The notes: generated from the sequence alone by a model not told the origin. A DNA stretch of 32,000 nt from Candidatus Saccharimonadota bacterium (GCA_002421785.1 DIRZ01000003.1:210001-242000), one strand, 5' to 3'; shown: positions 571 to 24,482, counted from the first letter of the stretch. Numbers and translations are program-made.

Positions 571-1074
571 CTAGGCAACAAGCACATAACGGATCGCAAC
601 AATAAGCACGATAACAACGACAATCGCCAGGATGAAGGAGCGTAGCCGGCTAGCCCATGAAAACAACCCGTAAGCCAGTCCGAAAATTACTGCCAAGATT
701 GCGACGAACCAGTACCACGCAAGGCCACTAAGCATAGCGCTCACACCCCATAACGCAATCGTTGCTGCAATGACAATCAGAAGCGGACGATACACGCGTA
801 GTCGAGCAAGCGCAACAACCCCCGCTATCGCGCCGACAATCATTGCGACAATCGCGGCATAATGAGGCGCTTGGCCGCACTCGGCGCTAGATTGCGGGCG
901 ACACAGGACAACACCAAACACAAACGTATTCATAAGGTATGATACCAGCGCAACAAGCAAACCCACTCCTACGCCTACAGCAATCGTTGCCATAAGCTCT
1001 CGCCCCGGCATAGATACAATCGGCGATACACGCGCAACAGACCCTGATTCATCACCAACTACTTCTCTATTCAT
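571..1074 (-). CDS. polytopic membrane protein, unknown function
   Basis: The track ORF is 571..1089. I prefer the internal ATG at 1074, which is preceded by gggag 5 nt upstream. The protein is very hydrophobic with several predicted TM segments. Confidence 0.5.
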   Translation of the reverse strand: MNREVVGDESGSVARVSPIVSMPGRELMATIAVGVGVGLLVALVSYLMNTFVFGVVLCRPQSSAECGQAPHYAAIVAMIVGAIAGVVALARLRVYRPLLIVIAATIALWGVSAMLSGLAWYWFVAILAVIFGLAYGLFSWASRLRSFILAIVVVIVLIVAIRYVLVA

Positions 1075-1108
1075 TACAACTCCCTGCAAACTAATTGTAT
1101 GTATTGTA

Positions 1109-1606
1109 CTATTTTTTTGCTTTTTTAGCTAGTCTCGGCGCAAGCTTAGTTTTTGCATAGGGCAAGTACCAAGCAGCTCCGAGCACGGCAAAACCGAGAC
1201 CTGCCATAACATCGAGTGGCGTGTGCACCTGCGCGAGGACACGTCCAATCGCGACAAGAACCGTCATTACGGCAAGAATGACAGCGTACTTTGAATTGCG
1301 AGTTGCAAACCACACCGCGAGCGTTAAAAAGCCCGCAAACAACGTATGGTCAGAGGGAAAGCCAGGGTTATCGAGGTACGCCGCGCCAGCTTGCACACCC
1401 AGTTGCTCAAAAGGGCGCAATTCTTGCGGCTGCCAAACCGCCGACACAAACTTAGCGAGCATATATGAAGTGATCCCTGCCATTAGCACACGCGTGTAAA
1501 TATCGTAGCGATGCGCGCCCGGTACTCTCATTAGTAACGCGTATGCCGCCAACAGTACAATGGGAAGCATCATTCCATCCGCAATTAATCGTATAAGGGT
1601 TTCCAT
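1109..1606 (-). CDS. PAP2-family lipid phosphate phosphatase (undecaprenyl-diphosphatase / phosphatidic acid phosphatase-like)
   Basis: Membrane protein carrying PAP2 motifs PSDHT and GRVLAQVHTPLDV (SRxxxxxHxxxD-like). Confidence 0.65.
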   Translation of the reverse strand: METLIRLIADGMMLPIVLLAAYALLMRVPGAHRYDIYTRVLMAGITSYMLAKFVSAVWQPQELRPFEQLGVQAGAAYLDNPGFPSDHTLFAGFLTLAVWFATRNSKYAVILAVMTVLVAIGRVLAQVHTPLDVMAGLGFAVLGAAWYLPYAKTKLAPRLAKKAKK

Positions 1607-10506: not shown

Positions 10507-10569
10507 GGACATAACATCTATCTAGCTATTCACGCAGTGCAGCAATGGCCCACAACGCCCTGCTATACT

Positions 10570-12529: not shown

Positions 12530-13183
12530 TTATTCTGCGCGTTTACTGTTTTGTGCCCGCCAGGCGGCGATATCAGCGTGATGACCGCTGAGTAGTACGG
12601 ATGGCACCTTACGGCCATTCCAGTCCTCTGGACGTGTATATTGTGGGAATTCAAGCGTCTCTCCATCACTGAAGCTCTCAATGCTGGCGCTTTCCGCCCC
12701 ACCCAGTACACCGGGGATTAGACGTACGATACTATCAATAATTGTCATCGCGGGCAATTCGCCGCCCGTCAGCACGTAATCACCGACGCTTAGCTCGGCA
12801 TCGATCAGCTCCAGTATACGCTCGTCATAGCCCTCGTAACGCCCGCACACAAATATATAGCCCTGCTCTGCCTCGCTGTACTCCTGTGCCATTGACTGCT
12901 TCCAGCGCTGCCCCCGTGGAGTCATTAGCAATACCTTCGCTTGGGGATCATTCTGCTTTGCCGCTGTGATTGCGTTCCATAGTGGCTCCACCATCAGCAA
13001 CATGCCGTCACCGCCACCATAGGGCGTATCGTCAACTTGTCGGCGCGGGCCCAGGCCGTATTCGCGTAAATCAACCGTCGACAGCTCCACAATACCGTCT
13101 TTTTGGGCCTTCCACATCATAGAATTGCCAAATACACCCTTAAACATGTCGGGAAATAAGGTGACTACTTGAAATTTTCTCAT
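12530..13183 (-). CDS. trmD: tRNA (guanine37-N1)-methyltransferase
   Basis: 217 aa. MRKFQVVTLFPDMF N-terminus, YGGGDGMLL, CGRYEGYDERI and VLTGGELPAM are typical TrmD blocks. Confidence 0.95.
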   Translation of the reverse strand: MRKFQVVTLFPDMFKGVFGNSMMWKAQKDGIVELSTVDLREYGLGPRRQVDDTPYGGGDGMLLMVEPLWNAITAAKQNDPQAKVLLMTPRGQRWKQSMAQEYSEAEQGYIFVCGRYEGYDERILELIDAELSVGDYVLTGGELPAMTIIDSIVRLIPGVLGGAESASIESFSDGETLEFPQYTRPEDWNGRKVPSVLLSGHHADIAAWRAQNSKRAE

Positions 13184-13203
13184 CTGTTATAGTATCGCAT
13201 GTA

Positions 13204-13232
13204 TTGACTTTTTTGTCTATATATGCTAATAT
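13204..13232 (+). promoter_or_regulatory. near-consensus sigma70 promoter of small GC3-rich ORF (module A)
   Basis: TTGACT (13204-13209), 17-nt spacer, TAATAT (13227-13232). Confidence 0.6.
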
Positions 13233-13288
13233 GTCGTTAGCTTTCGACACATTCCAGTCGACTGCGTCCCTACGAACAAGGAGAAAAG

Positions 13289-13543
13289 ATGCTCAATGCA
13301 GTCCTGGAGTACTGCTCACCAACGATGACCACACTCGCACTCCTGAGCAAGGAGCCCGACGAGAACGGGGTGATCGCACTCATCTTCAACTACATCCCGA
13401 CGTGGAAGCGGCCCCTGCTCAGGCTCCAGATCAAGAGGAACTTCCTCGTCAAGACGAAGAAGAAGGTCGAGGTACACTTCGACCGACTGATCATGCCTGG
13501 CGAGCCCCTCGCAACAGGCATACGCCTTGTGCCGCGGGCCTAA
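13289..13543 (+). CDS. orphan 84-aa protein with strongly GC3-biased codon usage
   Basis: aaggag RBS 6-7 nt upstream. By hand count about 70 of 84 codons end in G/C. No family recognised. Confidence 0.55.
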   Translation: MLNAVLEYCSPTMTTLALLSKEPDENGVIALIFNYIPTWKRPLLRLQIKRNFLVKTKKKVEVHFDRLIMPGEPLATGIRLVPRA

Positions 13544-13550
13544 GCCCTAA

Positions 13551-13651
13551 GCCCACCAAAAACTGCTTTGCCGAATTGGCTCGATCTGATTGAGAGACCT
13601 CGTTTCTCTCGGGTCGCCACAAACCCAATTCAGACGAGCCAATCGGTGGGC
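13551..13651 (+). other. about 100-nt highly structured element (complex terminator or ncRNA) after the 84-aa ORF
   Basis: Nested pairings: gcccacc/ggtgggc (outer), ccga(a)ttggctcg/cgagccaatcgg (12-13 bp) and gagaga-cctcgtt-tctctc (apical), followed by tatttt. An alternative pairing is gaattgg/ccaattc. Confidence 0.45.
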
Positions 13652-13687
13652 TATTTTCGTGCCCGAAATATGGTATTATATAAGCAC

Positions 13688-14020
13688 ATGGGTGAGGATT
13701 TTCAATCAACAACTACCAACGTAAGTGGGGTTACGGATGCGGAACGGCTTGAAGCTAGCACGCGACAAGTTTTCATTGCGCCCGTACATGATGACGTGGT
13801 CGCAGATGATTTGCCCGATGAGGTTATCGTCACCCGCCACCTCGTACAGCCACCAATCGGCAATATTCCTACCGACTCCGAATTAACCACTTCATCATCC
13901 GCACAGCAACACATCGACCAAAAAAATCACCGTTTTGCCCTGACTGTTAGCTTAGTCACGGTAGCTATCGTCAGTGGCGTATCGCTCGTCGCCTACCTGA
14001 CTGTCGCGCACCTTAGTTAA
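13688..14020 (+). CDS. tail-anchored hypothetical membrane protein (110 aa)
   Basis: Acidic N-terminal region plus a C-terminal TM (FALTVSLVTVAIVSGVSLVAYLTV). The ATG at 13688 lies 8 nt after an extended -10 (tggtattat, 13671-13679), so the mRNA may be leaderless. The track ORF starts earlier, at TTG 13568 inside the structured element. Confidence 0.45.
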   Translation: MGEDFQSTTTNVSGVTDAERLEASTRQVFIAPVHDDVVADDLPDEVIVTRHLVQPPIGNIPTDSELTTSSSAQQHIDQKNHRFALTVSLVTVAIVSGVSLVAYLTVAHLS

Positions 14021-14043
14021 CCCATCAATTTGCAGCCACCAAA

Positions 14044-14071
14044 AAACCCACTCTAATTTTGGAGTGGGTTT
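14044..14071. terminator. bidirectional rho-independent terminator
   Basis: aaacccactc-taattttg-gagtgggttt: a 10-bp stem between the convergent plus-strand ORF and the KH gene. Confidence 0.7.
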
Positions 14072-14150
14072 CTTAGACATATAAGGCTCTCAAACCTTGT
14101 GGTTTGCTCGCATGAGCTGGTTCAGTGTTCTCGCATTGAACTGTTTATGA

Positions 14151-14579
14151 TTATATATCGAGGTCGTCTAGTTCCGCAAGCTCTTTGCGAGACTTTTTTG
14201 CGAAGTCCGATTCTTCAGGTTCGTCGTTATCCACACTTACAGCGGTTGAATTATCCACAACGTCTACTATTTCGCCATCTTCGGTCGCCGCGTCATCGCT
14301 TGAAATAACAGTTGATTCGTCAGGATTGTCGTTATTGACGATCTTTAAGTTGTACCTCGCAGCGTTTTTTGTCCCAAGCGCACGAAGCAACGTGCGCAAG
14401 CTTTGCGCCGTAACGCCACGCCGGCCAATCACTCGGCCAAGATCTTCTGGGTTTACGGTCAGTGTGAGTAGCACACCTTTTTCGTCAACAATGCGGTCAA
14501 CGATAACGTCGTCCGGGTTGCCGACAAGTGATTTTACGATATATTCTACGAATTGCTGGTCAATAGTTGACATGCCCAC
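14151..14579 (-). CDS. KH-domain RNA-binding protein (KhpA/YlqC-like) with long acidic C-terminal tail
   Basis: The N-terminal 75 aa (LVGNPDDV...GRVIGRRGVTAQSLRTLL) match the UPF0109/KhpA KH fold and the usual position after rpsP. The extra 60 aa or so are D/E-rich. Confidence 0.8.
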   Translation of the reverse strand: MGMSTIDQQFVEYIVKSLVGNPDDVIVDRIVDEKGVLLTLTVNPEDLGRVIGRRGVTAQSLRTLLRALGTKNAARYNLKIVNNDNPDESTVISSDDAATEDGEIVDVVDNSTAVSVDNDEPEESDFAKKSRKELAELDDLDI

Positions 14580-14666
14580 TGGTCTCCTTTTCTGTCTCTC
14601 TGTTAGTATCGTACGCCTTTATTGTATCACGGTTTTACATTTCTCAGAATTGCGCGTTATATAGCT

Positions 14667-14689
14667 AAAACCCCCGGCATCGCCAGGGG
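14667..14689 (-). terminator. hairpin/attenuator between rpsP and KH gene
   Basis: On the minus strand: cccctgg-cgatg-ccggggg followed by tttt. Confidence 0.5.
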
Positions 14690-14711
14690 TTAAAAATATA
14701 CAGCGAATTGA

Positions 14712-15086
14712 TTATTCAGCCGCGACTTCTGCTAGCGCTTCGGCTGCAGGTGCTTCAACAACTTCTTCTTTCGGCTGGTTTTTGCGTAGCTTTTCAGCAT
14801 TGCGAATAGGCTTCTGTTTGTCCTCAGATGCTTGTTTGACCCATTTTGGAAGCTTCACGCCTGCTGTCTTAAGGAGCTTAACGACACGTGGAGTTGGCTG
14901 TGCGCCGTTGTCAAGGAACTTCTGCGCTTCCTCAACCTGAACATTTGCTTCTTTTGTGTGTGGGTTGTAGCTACCAACATAGGCAACAACACGTCCACTG
15001 CTAGGATGGCGCTGTGACTCTTGCACGGCGAGGCGATAAACTGGATATCCCTTGCGGCCAAGGCGTTGCAAACGAATTGCGAGCAT
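14712..15086 (-). CDS. rpsP: 30S ribosomal protein S16 (with Lys/Ala/Glu-rich C-terminal extension)
   Basis: MLAIRLQRLGRKGYPVYRLAVQESQ... is a canonical S16 N-terminus. Confidence 0.95.
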   Translation of the reverse strand: MLAIRLQRLGRKGYPVYRLAVQESQRHPSSGRVVAYVGSYNPHTKEANVQVEEAQKFLDNGAQPTPRVVKLLKTAGVKLPKWVKQASEDKQKPIRNAEKLRKNQPKEEVVEAPAAEALAEVAAE

Positions 15087-15144
15087 AAAATCTAATTTTC
15101 CTTCTTTATTACTTCACTTATAGGTTGTTTTTTACTTCTGTACC

Positions 15145-15173
15145 ATTTTACACTTTTTTTACAGTAGTGTCAA
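15145..15173 (-). promoter_or_regulatory. consensus sigma70 promoter of rpsP
   Basis: On the minus strand: TTGACA (15173..15168), 17-nt spacer, TAAAAT (15150..15145). Confidence 0.6.
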
Positions 15174-15177
15174 TCTG

Positions 15178-15894
15178 TTATTTGCTTTGACGCTTTTCAT
15201 ACGTCTGCAGGGCGGCACGGGCGGCTTCTTGCTGCGCATTCTGCTTACTAGGCCCAACACCTTTGCCCATAAGCTGTCCATTGACATATGCTCCCAGTGT
15301 AAACACTTTGTCGTGATCCGGGCCAACCTCTTCGATAACTTTATATAGTGGTGTCGCACCATCAACTCGCTGGCTGACTTCCTGTAGGTGGCTCTTCGGG
15401 TCGCGCCACGTGCCTTCGTTCAGAATAACCTCAAGCTTACTGATGATGTGCGTGTGAATGAACACACTGGCGGCATCGTAGCCTTGGTCGAGATAGATTG
15501 ATCCGATGGTAGCCTCGAACGCGTTTGCCAGTATCTGTAGTCGAGCACGTGGAGTGCCGTTCTTTTCACCCCTACTCATACGGACAAGTGACTCGTACCC
15601 TAGTTTGTCACCTGCTGCACCGATACTTTCCGTGCGCACCAAAGCAGCACGCCAACTGGTCAATATACCTTCTGGCTCGGTAAAGGTCCTGAACAAATAG
15701 TCAGTTACAACCAGCTCGAGCACAGCGTCACCTAGGAATTCCAGTCGTTCATTGTGGTCGGTCACGCTTTTTTTGTGCTCATTCACATAGCTACGGTGCG
15801 TCAATGCCGTAATAAGTAGCTGAATATCCTTAAATTCAAACCCGAGCTTTTCGCGCGCAAAATCTTGGTAAGGGCCGATGGGCATCCCTGTCAT
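15178..15894 (-). CDS. rnc: ribonuclease III
   Basis: RNase III signature NERLEFLGDAVLELVV plus a C-terminal dsRBD. Confidence 0.95.
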   Translation of the reverse strand: MTGMPIGPYQDFAREKLGFEFKDIQLLITALTHRSYVNEHKKSVTDHNERLEFLGDAVLELVVTDYLFRTFTEPEGILTSWRAALVRTESIGAAGDKLGYESLVRMSRGEKNGTPRARLQILANAFEATIGSIYLDQGYDAASVFIHTHIISKLEVILNEGTWRDPKSHLQEVSQRVDGATPLYKVIEEVGPDHDKVFTLGAYVNGQLMGKGVGPSKQNAQQEAARAALQTYEKRQSK

Positions 15895-16383
15895 TTATAG
15901 TTTCTCCTGCCGAATCCGCTTCATAGCGAGCAGCATTAATTTACCAATGTCTTCATATTCAATCAGGTCGAGCGCCTCACTAAACGGAAACCACCTGATT
16001 CCGTTCATCCATTCTTCTTTTTGGATTTCGTTACCATCAGAACGGACTCGTACCAAATAAATCTGGGTCGTCATGAGCACGAGCCGGTCGATACGGCGGT
16101 ATCGAAAGTGGATCTTGCCCAACCATCCCAACATATCAAGCTGGTGCAAGCCGGTTTCTTCGCCAATTTCACGGCGGGCAGTGTCGACAGCCTTCTCGCC
16201 GTCTTCAATGTGCCCTTTAGGAATCGTCCAACGGTCCTTAGCGTCCTGAATCAACAGGATCTCGATGCCATCTTTCCCGTGGCGAAATACGATGCCACCA
16301 CTCGTGGGTTCGCGGACGATTTCCTGAATTGAAGCCTTTGGTTTAAAATATTTCTTGAATTTATCAAGCTTCGGCGCTGGCAT
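15895..16383 (-). CDS. NUDIX hydrolase
   Basis: Nudix box [23 protein letters not shown] prefer the ATG at 16383 (MPAPKLDKF), which overlaps the nusB 3' end by 20 nt. The stop abuts the rnc start. Confidence 0.8.
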
Positions 16384-16825
16384 TGTCTGGTTTCTCCTCC
16401 ACAAGCGTCCTAAATGCAGTGCCGAGCACTCCATTTATAAACTTGCTTGAGTTATCAGAACCAAATGCTTTGGCGAGTTCAACAGCTTCGTTGATAGCGA
16501 CCTTCGGCGGTACTTTATCACCACGGAAGAGTAGTTCATACAAGCCCAGCCGCAATACAGTACGATCAATACGAGAAATCTGCTCAATCGGCCATTCTGG
16601 CGCAATTGGTTGAATCTTTGCATCGAGACCCGGCTGCTCTTGCACAACGCCAGTCACTAAATCTTTCACGAAATCAGTGTCATCAATCGCCGTTTCGTAT
16701 CGCTCTAGGTTACGAGTCAGTACTTCGTCGGCGTCCACAGAAGTATCGCCTGCCTGCAAGCGGAACTCATACTCATACAGAGTTTGAAGTGCGACGATGC
16801 GTCCTAAGTGACGGTTACTTGCCAT
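16364..16825 (-). CDS. nusB: transcription antitermination factor NusB
   Basis: [13 protein letters not shown]...[14 protein letters not shown]... are typical NusB blocks. Confidence 0.9.
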
Positions 16826-16876
16826 TGTCTCTTGGTTCTTTCTTTGTTAATATCCACCCTAACAGAGGTAGACGTG

Positions 16877-17053
16877 CTACTTCTTGGTAACGGTTTCTTT
16901 TTTGACTGCTTTAAGCTTTTTGCCAGTTTCGTTCTTGGTTGTCTTAACCTTGACAGGTGATTTTGCGTTCACACGACGTGCGAGCTCAAGTACAAGGTGG
17001 CTGCGGCGTAGACCGGTTTTGCGCGGGCTCGACTGCTTCTTTGGCTGTGCCAT
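16877..17053 (-). CDS. rpmF: 50S ribosomal protein L32
   Basis: Manual translation gives MAQPKKQSSPRKTGLRRSHLVLELARRVN... (58 aa), with the L32 signature MAxPKxKxSxxRxxxRRSH and a ggagaa RBS. It falls below the ORF-track length cutoff. Confidence 0.85.
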   Translation of the reverse strand: MAQPKKQSSPRKTGLRRSHLVLELARRVNAKSPVKVKTTKNETGKKLKAVKKETVTKK

Positions 17054-17094
17054 GAAATGTTCTCCTTTTTCGGATTCTAATAAAACTTAGTGTT

Positions 17095-17123
17095 ATTATA
17101 CCTCAGTTTGACTGGCAACTCAA
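17095..17123 (-). promoter_or_regulatory. candidate promoter of rpmF
   Basis: On the minus strand: TTGAGT, 17-nt spacer, TATAAT. Confidence 0.5.
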
Positions 17124-17159
17124 TACATTGACAAATATTAGTTATAGCGCTTATGTATA

Positions 17160-17188
17160 TTGACTTATAGTAATACTTATGCTATAAT
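17160..17188 (+). promoter_or_regulatory. consensus sigma70 promoter of small GC3-rich ORF (module B)
   Basis: TTGACT (17160-17165), 17-nt spacer, TATAAT (17183-17188). The flanks resemble the module A promoter. Confidence 0.6.
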
Positions 17189-17242
17189 GTTATTGTTAGG
17201 CACTTCGTCTAACCCTCGTACTTCCCCAATCCGAAGGAAAAC

Positions 17243-17548
17243 ATGTTCACGAACATCGTCATCACCCTGGCCTTCCTCGCCCTCGAGTTCGGCGTACTGC
17301 ACCTGTGCTACAGGTACAACACCCCTCTCGCGCGGCGACAGTACTCGGTCGCCGTCTTCGGAGCAATGGCGCTCCTCAGCCTCGGCAGCTACTGGTTGTC
17401 GCCCATCCGTGGCGCCGACTTCGTAGGTGATGTGCTGATGCCCAACCTGTGGCTCGGATGGATCAACATGATCCTCCTGGCCCTCTACATGATCGCCCTG
17501 GTCATCCGGGGCATCAAGAAGTACGGGCTCACCCCCGCCTCATTGTAG
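17243..17548 (+). CDS. orphan 101-aa membrane protein with extreme GC3 codon usage
   Basis: 3 predicted TM segments. By hand count about 90 of 101 codons end in G/C. It sits between its own promoter and terminator. No family recognised. Confidence 0.55.
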   Translation: MFTNIVITLAFLALEFGVLHLCYRYNTPLARRQYSVAVFGAMALLSLGSYWLSPIRGADFVGDVLMPNLWLGWINMILLALYMIALVIRGIKKYGLTPASL

Positions 17549-17569
17549 GCGGGGGTTTCCCCTTTTTGA
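17532..17569 (+). terminator. rho-independent terminator
   Basis: cccccgcc-tcattgta-ggcggggg followed by tttcccctttttg. The ORF stop codon lies within the hairpin. Confidence 0.7.
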
Positions 17570-17576
17570 GGCCAGG

Positions 17577-20012
17577 TTAGGCAACAATGCTGACGAGTTT
17601 GCCGGTAATGTAGATGACTTTCTTCGGTTCGCTAACAACAAATTTCTTTACATTTTCGTCCGCAAGGGCGAGCTTTTTAATTTCATCTTCGGCCGTATCT
17701 TTTGCCACGTCCAGTTTCGCGCGCAACTTACCATTAACTTGCACGATGATTGTCATCGTATCACCGGTTAGATACTGCTTATCCCATTGTGGCCAGCTGT
17801 CCTTTTGGGCGCTGGTTTCGTGGCCAAGGTCATGCCACAGCTCATCGGCCATATGTGGGGCAAACGGCGCCACAAGCGCGACCAAACTGTCCAGCGCAAA
17901 CTGCCAGCTATTGCCGCCAGCAAACCCCTTTGCCTTGAGAGCATACAAGCCGTTGGTGCATTCCATCATGGCGGCGATTGCCGTATTATACTTTTGGTCT
18001 TCTAGGTCGGCAGTTACTTTACGAATAGCCGGGTGGATCGTTCGCAGCACCTCAACGTTCTGTTCGTCATCGTGCCCAGCCTCTAGAAATTCCTGTACCA
18101 AGTTCCATATGCGATTGAGGAAACGATAGGTTCCGGGCACTCCCTGTGGGTCCCAACGAGCCCAGACGTCGAGCGGTGCAGCGAACATCAGGTAGGTACG
18201 AAGCGAATCGGCGCCATAGCCGCTGTTGATGATTTCGAGCGGATCAACACCATTACCCTTGCTCTTACTAAACATCGTTCCATCACTCGCAGTCACTTTA
18301 CCGTTAAACAGGAACTTCTTGAACGGCTCCGGGTTTTCTACGAGACCCTGGTGCCAGAAGAACCTGGTCATAAAGCGCGCATACATCATGTGCGCAGTGG
18401 CGTGATCACCACCGTTATAGAAATCAATCGGCATCCACTTGTTTGCAATCGCACTATCAAAGATGCGAGATTCATTGGCGCCGTCCAGGTAGCGCAGGAA
18501 GTACCAGCTACTGCAGATGTACGTGTCGAGCGTATCAGTTTCGCGCGTTGCAGGGCCGCCACAGGTCGGACATGTCGTATTCATCCACTCTGTCGCTCGT
18601 GCGAGCGCACTTCGCCCGTCGCCACTCGGCGCAAAATCGTCAAGCAAAGGCAGCTCAACAGGTAGTTGCTCGTCAGGAACAAGCACGGTGCCGTCTTTTT
18701 CGCAGTGAATAATCGGAATTGGCGCACCCCAGTATCGCTGACGACTCACGCTCCAGTCGCGGACTTTATAGGTCGTTTTGGCTGCGCCCCGCTGTTCTTG
18801 CTCGAGCCATGCCACAATCTCTTCGCGGGCATCGCTGCTCGCCATGCCGTCATAGTGGCCACTATTCATTAGTGGTCCCTCGCCGTGATAACACTGCTCG
18901 GCTACATCATGCGGCTTAGTCACTACTTCGATAATCGGTAGGTTGAACTTCTCGGCAAATTCAAAGTCACGCTCGTCGTGCGCCGGCACTGCCATAATTG
19001 CACCCGTGCCGTAACCGCTCAGCACATAGTCGGCCACCCATATAGGTACCTTCGCACCGGTCGCAGGATTAATCGCATACGAACCAGTTGCAATACCCGT
19101 CTTTTCTTTCGTTTCCTGGCGTTCTAGCTCACTCTTCTTCAAGCTATCTTTCACATACGCCATCACTGCGTCGCGGGTGCCGTCATTCACCAATTGCTCC
19201 ACCAGTTCGTGCTCTGGGGCAATTACAAGGAACGTCGCACCAAACAACGTGTCGGGGCGAGTCGTAAACACCGTAACAGCGTCATCGCGACCATCGAGAG
19301 CGAATTCCACCTCTGCGCCAACGCTTTTACCAATCCAGTTCTTCTGTGCGGCCTTTACTACTTCACTCCAGTCAAGCGCATCTGTCGCCTCGAGCATTTC
19401 ATCGGCATACTCAGTAACCTTAAAGAACCACTGCTTCACTTCTTTTTTGGCGACTTCAGGGTCATCAACGCTATCATGCCGCCAGCATTTTCCATCAATC
19501 ACTTGCTCATTAGCAAGCACGGTTTGGCACTTTGTACACCACCACTGCATACGTGAATCCTGGTATGCCAGGCCCGCCCGATACATTTCACTAAATATCC
19601 ACTGCGTCCATTTGTAATAGACGGGCAAATGCGTACTGATTTCCTTGCTCCAGTCGTTACTCCAGCCCATCGCTTTGTACTGCGTATGATAGCTAGGAAT
19701 AATCTTTGCCATACTTTCCTGGGGCGAAATACCGCTTTTAATGGCAAAGTTTTCGGCCGGTAGTCCAAATGCATCCCAGCCTACAGGGTGATAACTCTCG
19801 TATCCTTGCTGTCGCTTAAATCGTGCCATCACGTCACTAATGGTATAGTTCATCGCATGCCCAATGTGGATACCAGCCCCACTAGGGTAGTTAAACATGC
19901 TCATGGCGATGTATTTTTGCTTATCGGACGATAGGTCCGCACGGTAAACCTGTTGTTCATCCCAGGCTTGCTGCCACTTTGGCTCAATTTCAGTTGGATT
20001 ATAGCGCTTCAT
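17577..20012 (-). CDS. leuS: leucine--tRNA ligase
   Basis: 811 aa. HIGH-type motif (SGAGIHIGHAMNY), KMSKS-type motif (MFSKSKGN) and a CP1 editing domain. Confidence 0.97.
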   Translation of the reverse strand: MKRYNPTEIEPKWQQAWDEQQVYRADLSSDKQKYIAMSMFNYPSGAGIHIGHAMNYTISDVMARFKRQQGYESYHPVGWDAFGLPAENFAIKSGISPQESMAKIIPSYHTQYKAMGWSNDWSKEISTHLPVYYKWTQWIFSEMYRAGLAYQDSRMQWWCTKCQTVLANEQVIDGKCWRHDSVDDPEVAKKEVKQWFFKVTEYADEMLEATDALDWSEVVKAAQKNWIGKSVGAEVEFALDGRDDAVTVFTTRPDTLFGATFLVIAPEHELVEQLVNDGTRDAVMAYVKDSLKKSELERQETKEKTGIATGSYAINPATGAKVPIWVADYVLSGYGTGAIMAVPAHDERDFEFAEKFNLPIIEVVTKPHDVAEQCYHGEGPLMNSGHYDGMASSDAREEIVAWLEQEQRGAAKTTYKVRDWSVSRQRYWGAPIPIIHCEKDGTVLVPDEQLPVELPLLDDFAPSGDGRSALARATEWMNTTCPTCGGPATRETDTLDTYICSSWYFLRYLDGANESRIFDSAIANKWMPIDFYNGGDHATAHMMYARFMTRFFWHQGLVENPEPFKKFLFNGKVTASDGTMFSKSKGNGVDPLEIINSGYGADSLRTYLMFAAPLDVWARWDPQGVPGTYRFLNRIWNLVQEFLEAGHDDEQNVEVLRTIHPAIRKVTADLEDQKYNTAIAAMMECTNGLYALKAKGFAGGNSWQFALDSLVALVAPFAPHMADELWHDLGHETSAQKDSWPQWDKQYLTGDTMTIIVQVNGKLRAKLDVAKDTAEDEIKKLALADENVKKFVVSEPKKVIYITGKLVSIVA

Positions 20013-22016: not shown

Positions 22017-22243
22017 GTGCTTTTCCTTTCTTTTACCGCTGAGTTATAAAAAACGGCCAGCGAATTAATAGATAATTCGTAGCCGCAATGGTCGCTTATT
22101 GTAAAGCCGCTGTCCTACATACTCAGTATGCGCCTGCGATGTCTGCAATGCAAGTGCACTTTTGCACGAAGTACCGGGCGACTGTAAACATTTTCATAGT
22201 CAAACGGCTCATATGCGGTTATGATGAGGACAAAAGGAGTTAT

Positions 22244-22546
22244 ATGATAGCAAGTATTATTTATGCAATTGGTGGTTTTATAGAAGCACTTGTTGGTTTA
22301 CGGTTCGTACTACGGCTCGTAGGGGCAAACCCTGACAATGCGCTTGTCAGCTGGATTTATGCATGGAGCACACCGTTCGTTGCGCCATTTTCGGGTATTT
22401 TCGGCCAAGACGCCACTATTGTTAGTGGCGTAGGTGCCGTGACGACAAGCGTGTTCGATTGGACCGCCCTCGTCGCGCTGATCGTCATTGGTATCGTCGT
22501 GGGGATTATTGGCTCCTTGCTTGGCCGTCACTACGCAGTACGATAA
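22244..22546 (+). CDS. YggT-family membrane protein
   Basis: The ATG at 22244 is preceded by aaaggag. FIEALVGLRFVLRLVGANP...PFSGIFG is typical of YggT. The longer track ORF (from 22088) has no RBS. Confidence 0.65.
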   Translation: MIASIIYAIGGFIEALVGLRFVLRLVGANPDNALVSWIYAWSTPFVAPFSGIFGQDATIVSGVGAVTTSVFDWTALVALIVIGIVVGIIGSLLGRHYAVR

Positions 22547-22588: not shown

Positions 22589-22599
22589 TTCTCATTGAC

Positions 22600-22623
22600 G
22601 CGGGTATAGCTCAGTTGTTAGAG
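22600..22623 (+). pseudogene. 24-nt duplicate of the 5' end (acceptor arm plus D-arm) of tRNA-Gly(GCC)
   Basis: gcgggtatagctcagttgttagag is identical to 22777-22800. No matching T-arm or 3' acceptor strand follows. Confidence 0.8.
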
Positions 22624-22776
22624 TGAGAACCTTCAGCGAAGGTTCGCAAGGCAACGTCACAAATGAACTCGTTCATTTGCCTGACTTGCGGGGTCGCGGA
22701 ACGTGACCAAACTTGCCAGGCCAAGGATGCTTCTAACAAGTGCGGTATAATCGTGAAGTAAATTCATTTTACATAT
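22624..22776 (+). ncRNA. structured 153-nt spacer, candidate co-transcribed ncRNA or integration relic
   Basis: Hairpins gaacctt-cagcg-aaggttc and caaatgaa-ctcg-ttcatttg, plus a gtcac...gtgac closure. There is a degenerate inverted copy of the tRNA 5' part (cttctaacaagtgcggtata) and an anticodon-arm-like cttgccaggccaaggatg. Confidence 0.3.
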
Positions 22777-22852
22777 GCGGGTATAGCTCAGTTGTTAGAG
22801 CGCATCCTTGCCAAGGATGAGGCCACGAGTTAGAGTCTCGTTACCCGCACCA
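22777..22852 (+). tRNA. tRNA-Gly (anticodon GCC)
   Basis: Complete cloverleaf with anticodon loop ttGCCaa and an encoded CCA. The D-loop (agttgtta) and T-loop (ttagagt) are unusual. Confidence 0.85.
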
Positions 22853-23602: not shown

Positions 23603-24482
23603 AAGTACGGTCATTACTAGGACGCTACGTCCAGCAATAAACCTTTCTCTACTGCACATTGTAACGCACTTTTAAAGCCGAGGCACTGCCTCGGCTTGTT
23701 GTTTATGCGAGTAACAACTTCGTCTATCTCCGCTTGGCTCACTGTGCTAAAGCCACTGCCCTTAGGGAAGTAATGTCGGAGCATTTTGTCAGCATTCTCT
23801 ACGCCACCCTTCTGCCAACTGGAGTATGGGCCTGTAAAGAAGTCGGGCGCACCCGTCTTCTTAGTAATGAGCTCGTGCTGTTTGTTCTCGATGCCGTTGT
23901 CGGTTGTCATGGTTCGTATGCGTAGATCTCTGGCTAGTCTAACTATTGCTTGAGCATACGGATCGGGCCTAAGGGTTAGAGCGAGTCTTGCTCTTACTGA
24001 CCGCGTTGTCCTTTCTTGGAGCACTGCGAGCGCAGCTGCCATCTGGAGCTATATAGCCAAGCGTAAATCTGCGTAGTGCTGACATATGGCAGTGTAGTCT
24101 GCTGAGCTCTTAAATAGCCTGAGATTGCTCGCGGGCTTCAGTCGTATGGAGGAGCTAAGCGCTCAGCTACAAACAATCAGAGCGCTGGATACTTCTCAAT
24201 CTTTTGCCACTGGCACCGTCGACTGCGTCTGGATACTCGGCTCTTCGCCTTAGCTTTCTTAGCGATATATTCACCAGCCACACTACTAAACTTGATCTCT
24301 CGGCTAATGGTACTCGGGCTTCGCCCGAGCACCTCCGCTATCTTACGTATGCTGTATCCTCTACCTTTAAGATCTCTATTTCGCTCCGCTCCGCGTCGCT
24401 CAAACCAATGTATTTCTTAGCCTGCATGTACCTATTTTAGTTGCTGAAATTTTAGTGAGTGTCCTAGTGTATTCCGTACTTT
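23603..24482 (-). mobile_element. decayed IS30-family insertion sequence with recognisable terminal inverted repeats
   Basis: Ends aagtacgg-tcatt-actaggac (23603-23623) and gtcctagt-gtatt-ccgtactt (24461-24482) match in inverted orientation at 16 of 21 positions. The interior encodes only fragments of an IS30 transposase. Confidence 0.7.
23617..24427 (-). pseudogene. IS30-family transposase pseudogene (frameshifted and internally deleted)
   Basis: From ATG 24427: MQAKKYIGLSDAERSEIEILK, then a frameshift to GRGYSIRKIAEVLGRSPSTISREIK (the IS30 HTH), with further stops. The intact C-terminal piece (23617..24042) has TTDNGIENKQHE...PYSSWQKGGVENADKMLRHYFPKG...NNKPRQCLGF. About 270 codons remain, against more than 300 for intact IS30 transposases. 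Confidence 0.8.

Follow-up and report, generated by a model that had tools for sequence, protein, structure and literature searches.

The 32,000-nucleotide (nt) stretch of DNA analyzed here (DIRZ01000003.1, positions 210001 to 242000), which we call the window, contains a small transcription unit whose single open reading frame (ORF), named ORF A, shows a G+C content at third codon positions (GC3) well outside the range of the genes around it. A preliminary description of the locus had proposed that ORF A lies in an expression cassette (module A), and this is borne out by comparison with related contigs: relatives keep the promoter, the beginning of the leader and a hairpin at the 3' end, and differ in the ORF between them. 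The reading which we put forward is that a self-contained unit with a conserved frame carries ORF A as its cargo, that this cargo is exchanged or deleted, and that its GC3 derives from a compositional regime other than that of the resident genome. Taken as a whole, we consider this reading to be evenly poised between right and wrong.

A conserved frame around variable cargo

The contigs used for comparison, designated by L numbers, are mostly short metagenome pieces from different samples; six of them came to light when metagenome contigs were scanned with a DNA pattern of the 3' element. ORF A in the window and its homologues in L001, L016 and L024 lie between the same promoter and 3' element. 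Elsewhere the frame holds membrane proteins unrelated to ORF A, one of 84 amino acids (aa) in L026, one of 56 aa in L027 and one of 112 aa in L025, L028 and L029. None of these membrane cargos has any similarity to ORF A by BLASTP. The unit is flanked by trmD and a gene for a KH-domain protein in the window, L016, L026 and L027, and a single flank is visible in L001 (trmD side) and L024 (KH side). What this trmD-KH slot contains is a member of the ORF A family, one or other of the membrane proteins of 84 and 56 aa, or nothing. Lineages in which the synonymous sites of trmD are saturated have ORF A homologues in the slot. Outside the slot, the 3' element together with a cargo was found beside the gene for EF-G (L014) and beside that for an ABC-F ATPase (L029).

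An empty slot is seen in L003 and L005, two close relatives (trmD 92% identical) in which the unit is missing and the end of its 3' element is left. Alignment of their 61-nt spacer with positions 13648-13686, a stretch that takes in the final bases of the 3' element, scores 17.5, a value reached by none of 2000 shuffles. Because this alignment covers the right end of the arrangement in the window together with the 3' element tail, loss of the unit in L003 and L005 is the simpler reading. Protein identity between the window and L003 (region 12530-20012) is 100% for rnc and a 58-aa ORF, 99% for nusB, 97% for leuS, 92% for trmD, 87% for hisS and 84% for a second cassette gene, ORF B, and falls to 76% for a 200-aa ORF at 10537; this mosaic suggests blocks of recent recombination.

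L024 carries two units in tandem. In the second cassette (843-1262, minus strand) a TTGACT promoter immediately past the first terminator precedes a membrane ORF of 75 aa, and a diverged 3' element (37 bits) closes the unit.

The TTGACT-17-TAATAT promoter and the strong AAGGAG ribosome-binding site (RBS) that had been described for module A are both present (Table 1). The promoter has an extended -10 TG at 13224-13225, and the AAGGAG, at 13278-13283, lies 5 nt ahead of the ATG; in the leader 13244-13248 pairs with 13257-13261 to form the hairpin. The putative promoter is conserved, as ATTGACTTTTTTGT...TAtAAT, at the same place in L001, L016, L024, L026 and L027. The start of the leader of the window is common to the frames of L029 and L027, and the structured leader of L027 is that of L016 and L024 up to about 15 nt from the ATG despite the different cargo. 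Some hairpin is present upstream of the RBS in every frame.

When the window was searched for TTGACW, a spacer of 16-18 nt, TAnnnT and the TG extension, only two sites were found, those of ORF A and ORF B. The kinship that had been suggested for the promoters and leaders of these two modules holds only in part. Local alignment of 13184-13288 with 17140-17242 scores 14.5, against 9.2 +/- 1.6 for dinucleotide shuffles (11 of 2000 reach 14.5), and the matches, GTTATAG, TATTGACTT and TATGCTA.AAT, all fall within the promoter. Taken by themselves, the two leaders fall below the mean of the shuffles, being equalled or bettered by 1566 of 2000 shuffles, and the score of the promoter part alone was reached by 149 of 2000. 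On these results a shared leader is ruled out, and the promoter words, which do match, are largely sigma-70 consensus.

The 3' element begins 0-11 nt past the stop codon of every cargo. Its outer stem is formed by AGCCCACCaAAA and aTCGGTGGGCT and its inner stem by GGCTCGAtCTGA and TCAGaCGAGCC, followed by an apical hairpin and the T-run. Across nine sequences 96% of the alignment cells are paired, with few covariations, and a covariance model (R1) gives 103.5 bits in the window and 95-134 bits over eleven loci. Sequence conservation is high given the saturated synonymous sites of the lineages concerned. A diverged copy follows a remote ORF A homologue in the lower-GC contig L018 (30 bits, E about 1e-5). 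Judged by its predicted structure the element would most simply be a long intrinsic terminator. Transcription is predicted to begin near 13239 and to stop near 13660. Neither ORF A nor the 3' element has an Rfam match at gathering or lax thresholds.

It should be noted that at 13544-13560, and in all 3' elements of alignment A6, the arm TTCGGTGGGCT pairs either with AGCCCACCGAAA in the outer stem or, by way of G-U pairs, with CGCCGAA further in. The pairings given by RNAalifold differ between a set of four and a set of nine 3' element sequences, and two alternative folds are thus possible.

ORF A as a gene

ORF A is a real, fast-evolving gene, as follows from its ratios of nonsynonymous to synonymous substitution (dN/dS), a confident structure model and an orphan family of 13 clusters. 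The family, recovered by word-indexed and exhaustive searches together, comprises proteins of 76-103 aa, all metagenomic; a distant member of 103 aa in L024 was found separately (hhalign, 95.9%). The exhaustive profile search of 1.84 billion representative proteins, which covered ORF A only, yielded just three small relatives, all on low- or mid-GC contigs. Homologues at 32-62% identity keep both frame and length. Against L001 dN is 0.30 and dS 0.65 (dN/dS 0.46) and against L016 dN/dS is 0.21; the range within the group sharing the slot is 0.21-0.46 and the value against L018 is 0.63, all of these being noisy figures with dS near saturation on 73-84 codons.

The AlphaFold2 model, built on a five-member alignment, has a predicted local distance difference test score of 89 and the order helix, strand, helix, strand, strand; there are 13 K+R residues to 7 D+E. 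The best Foldseek matches in the PDB are of SpoVS type and weak (E 0.007-0.04, template modelling score 0.52-0.56). SpoVS and Alba-like proteins are like ORF A in size (84-86 aa) and in the order of helices and strands, but unlike it in sequence and profile. Membership in SpoVS was rejected: no Pfam SpoVS match was obtained at E <= 0.1, and hhalign against an approximate SpoVS sequence gave nothing. The ORF A protein may bind nucleic acid. A type I toxin was considered and discarded, the predicted fold being soluble alpha/beta and not that of a small hydrophobic peptide.

The opposite view, in which a GC-rich patch leaves ORF A open by chance or itself encodes a structured RNA, could draw on the fact that the ORF is short and orphan, with no meaningful match in Pfam (E <= 0.1), PHROG, PADLOC or the PDB sequences. 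However, the enrichment in G+C is specific to codon position (0.56, 0.37 and 0.83 at first, second and third positions), the homologues keep frame and length at the dN/dS values given above, and the structure prediction is confident. An RNA in place of a gene is further opposed by the missing Rfam match and by an ORF with no excess structure relative to synonymous shuffles. We regard the chance-ORF reading as close to refuted.

Codon composition in the window

Codons ending in G or C make up 70 of the 84 in ORF A (GC3 0.833) and AGG occurs twice, in line with the hand count of the preliminary description. G+C at first and second positions (GC1 and GC2) is ordinary, and an excess confined to one codon position is the pattern of a coding sequence. 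The reference set consisted of the 32 other genes within the window, which have a GC3 of 0.508 +/- 0.045 (maximum 0.60), in agreement with the earlier impression that flanking genes lie near 50%. Against this set both ORFs prove to be the outliers they had been taken for, ORF A by 7.3 standard deviations (sd) and ORF B, with 90 of 101 codons and a GC3 of 0.891, by 8.6 sd. A scan of all ORFs of at least 35 aa detected no further plausible gene in the window with GC3 above 0.70.

The boundaries of high GC3 are sharp at the ends of ORF A and ORF B, and the excess does not extend beyond the ORF. G+C content in the leader and 3' region is 0.50-0.52 against 0.435 in intergenic DNA, a mild enrichment in segments that are structured anyway. 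Resident genes have GC1 0.59, GC2 0.40, a G+A+R+P fraction of 0.27 and an F+Y+M+I+N+K fraction of 0.24. GC3 skew is -0.10 in plus-strand resident genes, -0.06 in ORF A and -0.31 in ORF B; strand skew was set aside as an explanation for the preferred use of C-ending codons, since these values do not discriminate.

ORF B and other slots

ORF B is the second cassette of this kind. The promoter and leader are identical in the window and L003, and the protein is 84% identical. Its terminator is unrelated to the 3' element of ORF A (no match to model R1). The dN of ORF B is 0.08-0.11, against 0.011-0.015 for leuS (about 7-10 times higher), with dN/dS of 0.38-0.94. The alleles in the window, L002, L003, L031, L032 and L033 are block mosaics, and the four-gamete test is failed by 275 of 561 informative site pairs (49%). 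The family, at 75-94% identity, has a GC3 of 0.87-0.95, with alleles up to 8 GC3 points apart. Among the derived synonymous third-position changes in the six alleles about 16 are GC-to-AT and one is AT-to-GC; the ratio is close to the approximately 13:1 expected for unconstrained decay from a GC3 of about 0.93, and on this count the cargo of ORF B appears to be decaying toward the resident composition.

In L016 and L026 the ORF B slot has a similar promoter and leader hairpin and another cargo, which in L026 is a 153-aa lipoprotein of GC3 0.47. A third GC3-rich unit was found in two close relatives, L002 (5281-5718) and L004 (7877-8317), where a 145-aa lipoprotein of GC3 0.79, with its own TGCTATAAT promoter and hairpin terminator, lies between an HD-domain gene and a YGGT-family gene (start at 22244 in the window); at 22017-22243 of the window this unit is absent and about 120 nt of unrelated sequence stand instead. 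A 140-aa orphan of GC3 0.82, in a background of 0.33-0.39, was observed near the remote ORF A homologue of L018 (2636-3058) and also in L021 (3-440).

Origin of the GC3 excess

Homologues of ORF A have a GC3 of 0.57-0.83 in backgrounds of 0.36 (L018), 0.45 (L024) and about 0.5 (window, L016 and L014). The excess belongs to the cargo family and not to the resident genome.

The preliminary description had ORF A and ORF B recently captured from a high-GC organism, such as an actinobacterium, and placed behind native promoters. The compositional break against the flanks is there, GC3 being 7-9 sd above resident genes with sharp boundaries, as is the patchy presence among relatives. The younger ORF B family (GC3 0.87-0.95) stands above the older ORF A family (0.57-0.83), which is the order predicted by amelioration, and the derived synonymous changes of ORF B run about 16:1 toward A/T. 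The searches for a donor argue the other way. No member of the ORF A family outside these small-genome contexts was found among the 1.84 billion representative proteins or in 5.8 billion clusters, nor in GTDB species genomes, IMG/VR, or phage and plasmid records; for ORF B, neither a word-indexed search of those 5.8 billion clusters nor the same collections of genomes, viruses, phages and plasmids gave an outside homologue. All contexts recovered for the two ORFs are low- or mid-GC contigs with the same kind of neighbours. Likewise neither ORF had a tblastn match at E <= 1 when 50,697 phage and 72,556 plasmid records were searched; with no match in IMG/VR and no meaningful one in PHROG or PADLOC, an origin from phage or plasmid was rejected.

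Composition points in the same direction as the searches. The high-GC control consisted of one genome, that of mycobacteriophage Rosebush (68.6% GC, GC3 0.88), which has GC1 0.67, GC2 0.50, G+A+R+P 0.34-0.36 and F+Y+M+I+N+K 0.17. The five GC3-rich cargos have GC1 0.46-0.63, GC2 0.35-0.46, G+A+R+P 0.21-0.29 and F+Y+M+I+N+K 0.21-0.32; measured against this single control, all five are at or beyond its extreme and inside the resident range. Codon choice differs too, the cargos preferring CTC, GTC and CCC with 21% of Arg encoded by AGR, and Rosebush preferring CTG, GTG and CCG with AGR at 1%; in this choice among G/C-ending codons the cargos resemble the resident genes. An actinobacterial or other high-GC donor finds no support in these data, and the ORF A homologues which share the frame across lineages with saturated trmD synonymous sites speak against a recent capture. 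We consider such a capture quite improbable.

Alternatively, the excess might arise in place, through GC-biased gene conversion at recombination hot spots with diverged alleles. Such a process would account for third positions alone being shifted with a resident-like amino-acid make-up, for the highest GC3 being found in the most recombinant cassette (ORF B, 49% incompatible pairs), and for a family GC3 that is high across backgrounds of 0.36 (L018) and 0.51 (window); recombining bacterial genes are indeed known for a raised GC3 (PMC4450053). Other cargos in the same frames, however, have ordinary GC3, such as the L026 lipoprotein, nearly every derived change in ORF B goes from GC to AT, with alleles up to 8 GC3 points apart, and the leader and 3' region, which are structured anyway, are only mildly enriched. 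The size of the shift, +0.3 to +0.45, is to our knowledge far beyond the values reported for bacteria. We hold biased conversion to be unlikely.

Selection on synonymous sites for the messenger, whereby G/C-ending codons would stabilize it or shield it from A/U-directed ribonucleases together with the 5' and 3' hairpins, was the third candidate. Whole transcripts do fold better than shuffles (z -4.6 and -5.7), the coding parts reach -34 to -38 kcal per 100 nt against -26 to -31 in three of five neighbours (the YGGT-family gene has -35.6), and the feature persists in a deeply diverged family. The good folding of whole transcripts is nevertheless due to the leader and terminator: the coding structure is no stronger than that of synonymous-codon shuffles (z -0.2 to -1.4, with -2.3 for one ORF B allele), and a specific mRNA structure in the ORF is excluded. 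Moreover, rpsP, expected to be highly expressed, has no such bias (GC3 0.42), and other cargos in identical frames have none either. Messenger selection is in our view highly improbable. Translational selection was likewise rejected, with rpsP and the 58-aa basic protein at GC3 0.42-0.47.

A literature search for Saccharibacteria and GC3 gave nothing relevant. Of three candidates, an imported cargo pool which is now decaying, biased conversion and messenger selection, the imported pool is placed first.

Neighbouring genes

The genes around the unit are core genes on the opposite strand, namely trmD (12530-13183), the KH-domain gene (14151-14579), rpsP, rnc, a NUDIX gene, nusB, the 58-aa basic ORF and leuS. 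On the trmD side the minus strand has the promoter-like words TAGACA-17-GATACT, of which the -10-like word lies within 13184-13203 and is kept in L001, L016, L026 and L027; judging from its position, trmD may have little or no leader. The 110-aa gene to the right of the unit is a second variable gene of the trmD-KH region, its position being taken by a 73-aa gene in L016 and, in L024, by the 75-aa membrane ORF, which is followed by a 3' element of its own.

Imperfect direct repeats surround the ORF A unit, CTGTTATAGTAT (13186-13197) on one side and TGGTATTATAT (13673-13683) on the other, and L003 has a single copy, CTGTTATAGTATAAGCA. Both repeats are -10-like words, a few bases from the starts of trmD (on the other strand) and of the 110-aa gene; because these words lie within a few bases of the start codons, both genes may be leaderless.

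Two further observations concern more distant parts of the window. At 22590-22852 a copy of about 24 bases (GCGGGTATAGCTCAGTTGTTAGAG) of the 5' end of tRNA-Gly(GCC) (22777-22852) lies about 180 nt upstream of the gene and is followed by unrelated sequence, an arrangement also found in L002. Possible explanations are a tRNA fragment and the remnant of a rearrangement. At 23617-24042 on the minus strand a 141-aa ORF contains the motif TDNGIENKQHE, which resembles the core of a DDE transposase or integrase. The ORF has no Pfam match at E <= 0.001 and is perhaps a degraded fragment.

Table 1. Coordinates of the two cassettes and of adjoining features in the window.
Feature	Position	Strand	Description
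Spacer shared with divergent trmD	13184-13203		contains CTGTTATAGTAT; trmD start codon at 13183, minus strand
Cassette promoter, sigma-70-type	13204-13232	+	TTGACT 13204-13209, 17-nt spacer, TAATAT 13227-13232
Leader, 56 nt	13233-13288	+	conserved start TTAGCTTTCG, small hairpin, AAGGAG
ORF A	13289-13543	+	84-aa basic protein, predicted alpha/beta fold, GC3 0.83, cassette cargo
3' element, about 115 nt	13549-13664	+	outer stem, inner stem, apical hairpin, T-run
Promoter-like TGGTATTAT	13665-13687	+	immediately upstream of the 110-aa gene
110-aa gene	13688-14020	+	GC3 0.50 (ordinary), C-terminal hydrophobic stretch; second variable gene of the trmD-KH region
Module B promoter	17160-17188	+	TTGACT, 17-nt spacer, TATAAT, extended -10 TG
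ORF B	17243-17548	+	101-aa hydrophobic protein, GC3 0.89, hypervariable mosaic alleles; second cassette of the same kind
ORF B terminator hairpin	17532-17568	+	CCCCCGCC, 8 nt, GGCGGGGG, T-rich run; stop codon in the loop

Discussion

The layout of the unit, the coding status of ORF A, the change of cargo between relatives, the compositional facts and the recombination among ORF B alleles are established by the data. The unit, as we read it, consists of a near-consensus sigma-70 promoter, a short structured leader, a strong RBS, one small ORF and a long hairpin terminator, all set in a fixed slot between trmD and the KH-domain gene. The frame would be inherited, and the inner ORF exchanged among lineages or deleted. 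For the route of exchange we infer uptake of DNA followed by homologous recombination on the conserved frame and the flanking core genes, and the composition of the cargo would reflect a regime different from that of the resident genome, with a source that is not a typical actinobacterium. Natural competence has been shown for Saccharibacteria (PMC10633639), and the proposed route fits this if the organism is one of the Saccharibacteria.

Several points weigh against this proposal. No recombination event has been reconstructed at the ORF A slot, and exchange is read from the pattern across contigs of different samples; the competence of the organism is assumed, and the proposal does not account for the first entry of a new ORF into the frame. 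A GC3 of 0.83-0.95 with resident-like GC1, GC2 and amino acids does not match the Rosebush control, and for this reason the term "foreign pool" is a placeholder. The excess of GC-to-AT changes is also what would be expected of young polymorphisms where selection or biased conversion holds G+C, and decay is therefore not proven. Finally, some cargos in the same frame have an ordinary GC3 (0.54-0.61).

The closest known arrangement is that of the minimal mobile elements of Neisseria (Snyder et al., 2007; definition as in PMC3082526). As there, a conserved pair of flanking genes encloses different whole-gene cassettes in different strains, and the genes beside the unit include no evident transposase or integrase. 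Exchange in Neisseria is attributed to homologous recombination in the flanks of a transformable organism, as we infer for the ORF A slot. The differences are that conservation of the ORF A unit extends into the transcription unit itself (promoter, leader start and the 115-nt 3' hairpin), that the swapped part is essentially the RBS and one small ORF, that the 3' element recurs at other loci, and that the cargo is odd at third positions only.

Integron attC cassettes, too, have a small ORF followed by a conserved imperfect inverted repeat (about 60-140 nt) which is also found behind unrelated ORFs. Each unit described here, in contrast, has its own TTGACT promoter instead of a place in an array with a common promoter, and at most two units stand in tandem. 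Inspection of alignment A6 found no RYYYAAC/GTTRRRY attC cores in the 3' element, whose ends are GCCCACCGAAA and TTTCGGTGGGC, and a Pfam scan of the neighbouring genes found no integrase among them.

Phage morons, described by Hendrix and colleagues, are autonomous units of promoter, gene and terminator in prophages. Like the ORF A unit they are single small genes with their own promoter and terminator, a composition unlike that of the flanks and a variable presence. The flanks of ORF A, however, are the core genes trmD and KH and not a prophage, no PHROG or viral-contig match was obtained, and it is the frame that is conserved while the gene changes. Horizontally acquired genes that ameliorate, in the sense of Lawrence and Ochman, resemble ORF A and ORF B in being compositional outliers of patchy distribution with synonymous changes toward the resident composition. 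Unlike them, ORF A and ORF B look foreign in GC3 only, with resident-like GC1, GC2 and amino acids and no detectable donor lineage.

A further proposition would treat the conserved frame as an integrase-free exchange and expression system of small-genome, possibly epibiotic bacteria, in which GC-biased repair at hot spots drives the GC3 of the cargo to 0.8-0.95 and the ORF A protein acts on the hairpin. This we consider distinctly unlikely; if true, it would give bacteria a parallel to the runaway GC3 known from recombination hot spots of eukaryotes.

If the arrangement holds genome-wide, reduced genomes would keep fixed, strongly expressed slots through which small membrane proteins and proteins resembling nucleic-acid-binding ones are shuffled between lineages, a compact means by which cell-dependent organisms could vary surface or regulatory functions. 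The frames may also serve as ready-made expression sites for genetic work in such bacteria. A high GC3 with ordinary amino acids, found across different backgrounds, is a clean fit to neither a high-GC donor, translational selection nor a specific mRNA structure, and the locus offers a concrete place at which biased gene conversion in bacteria may be tested.

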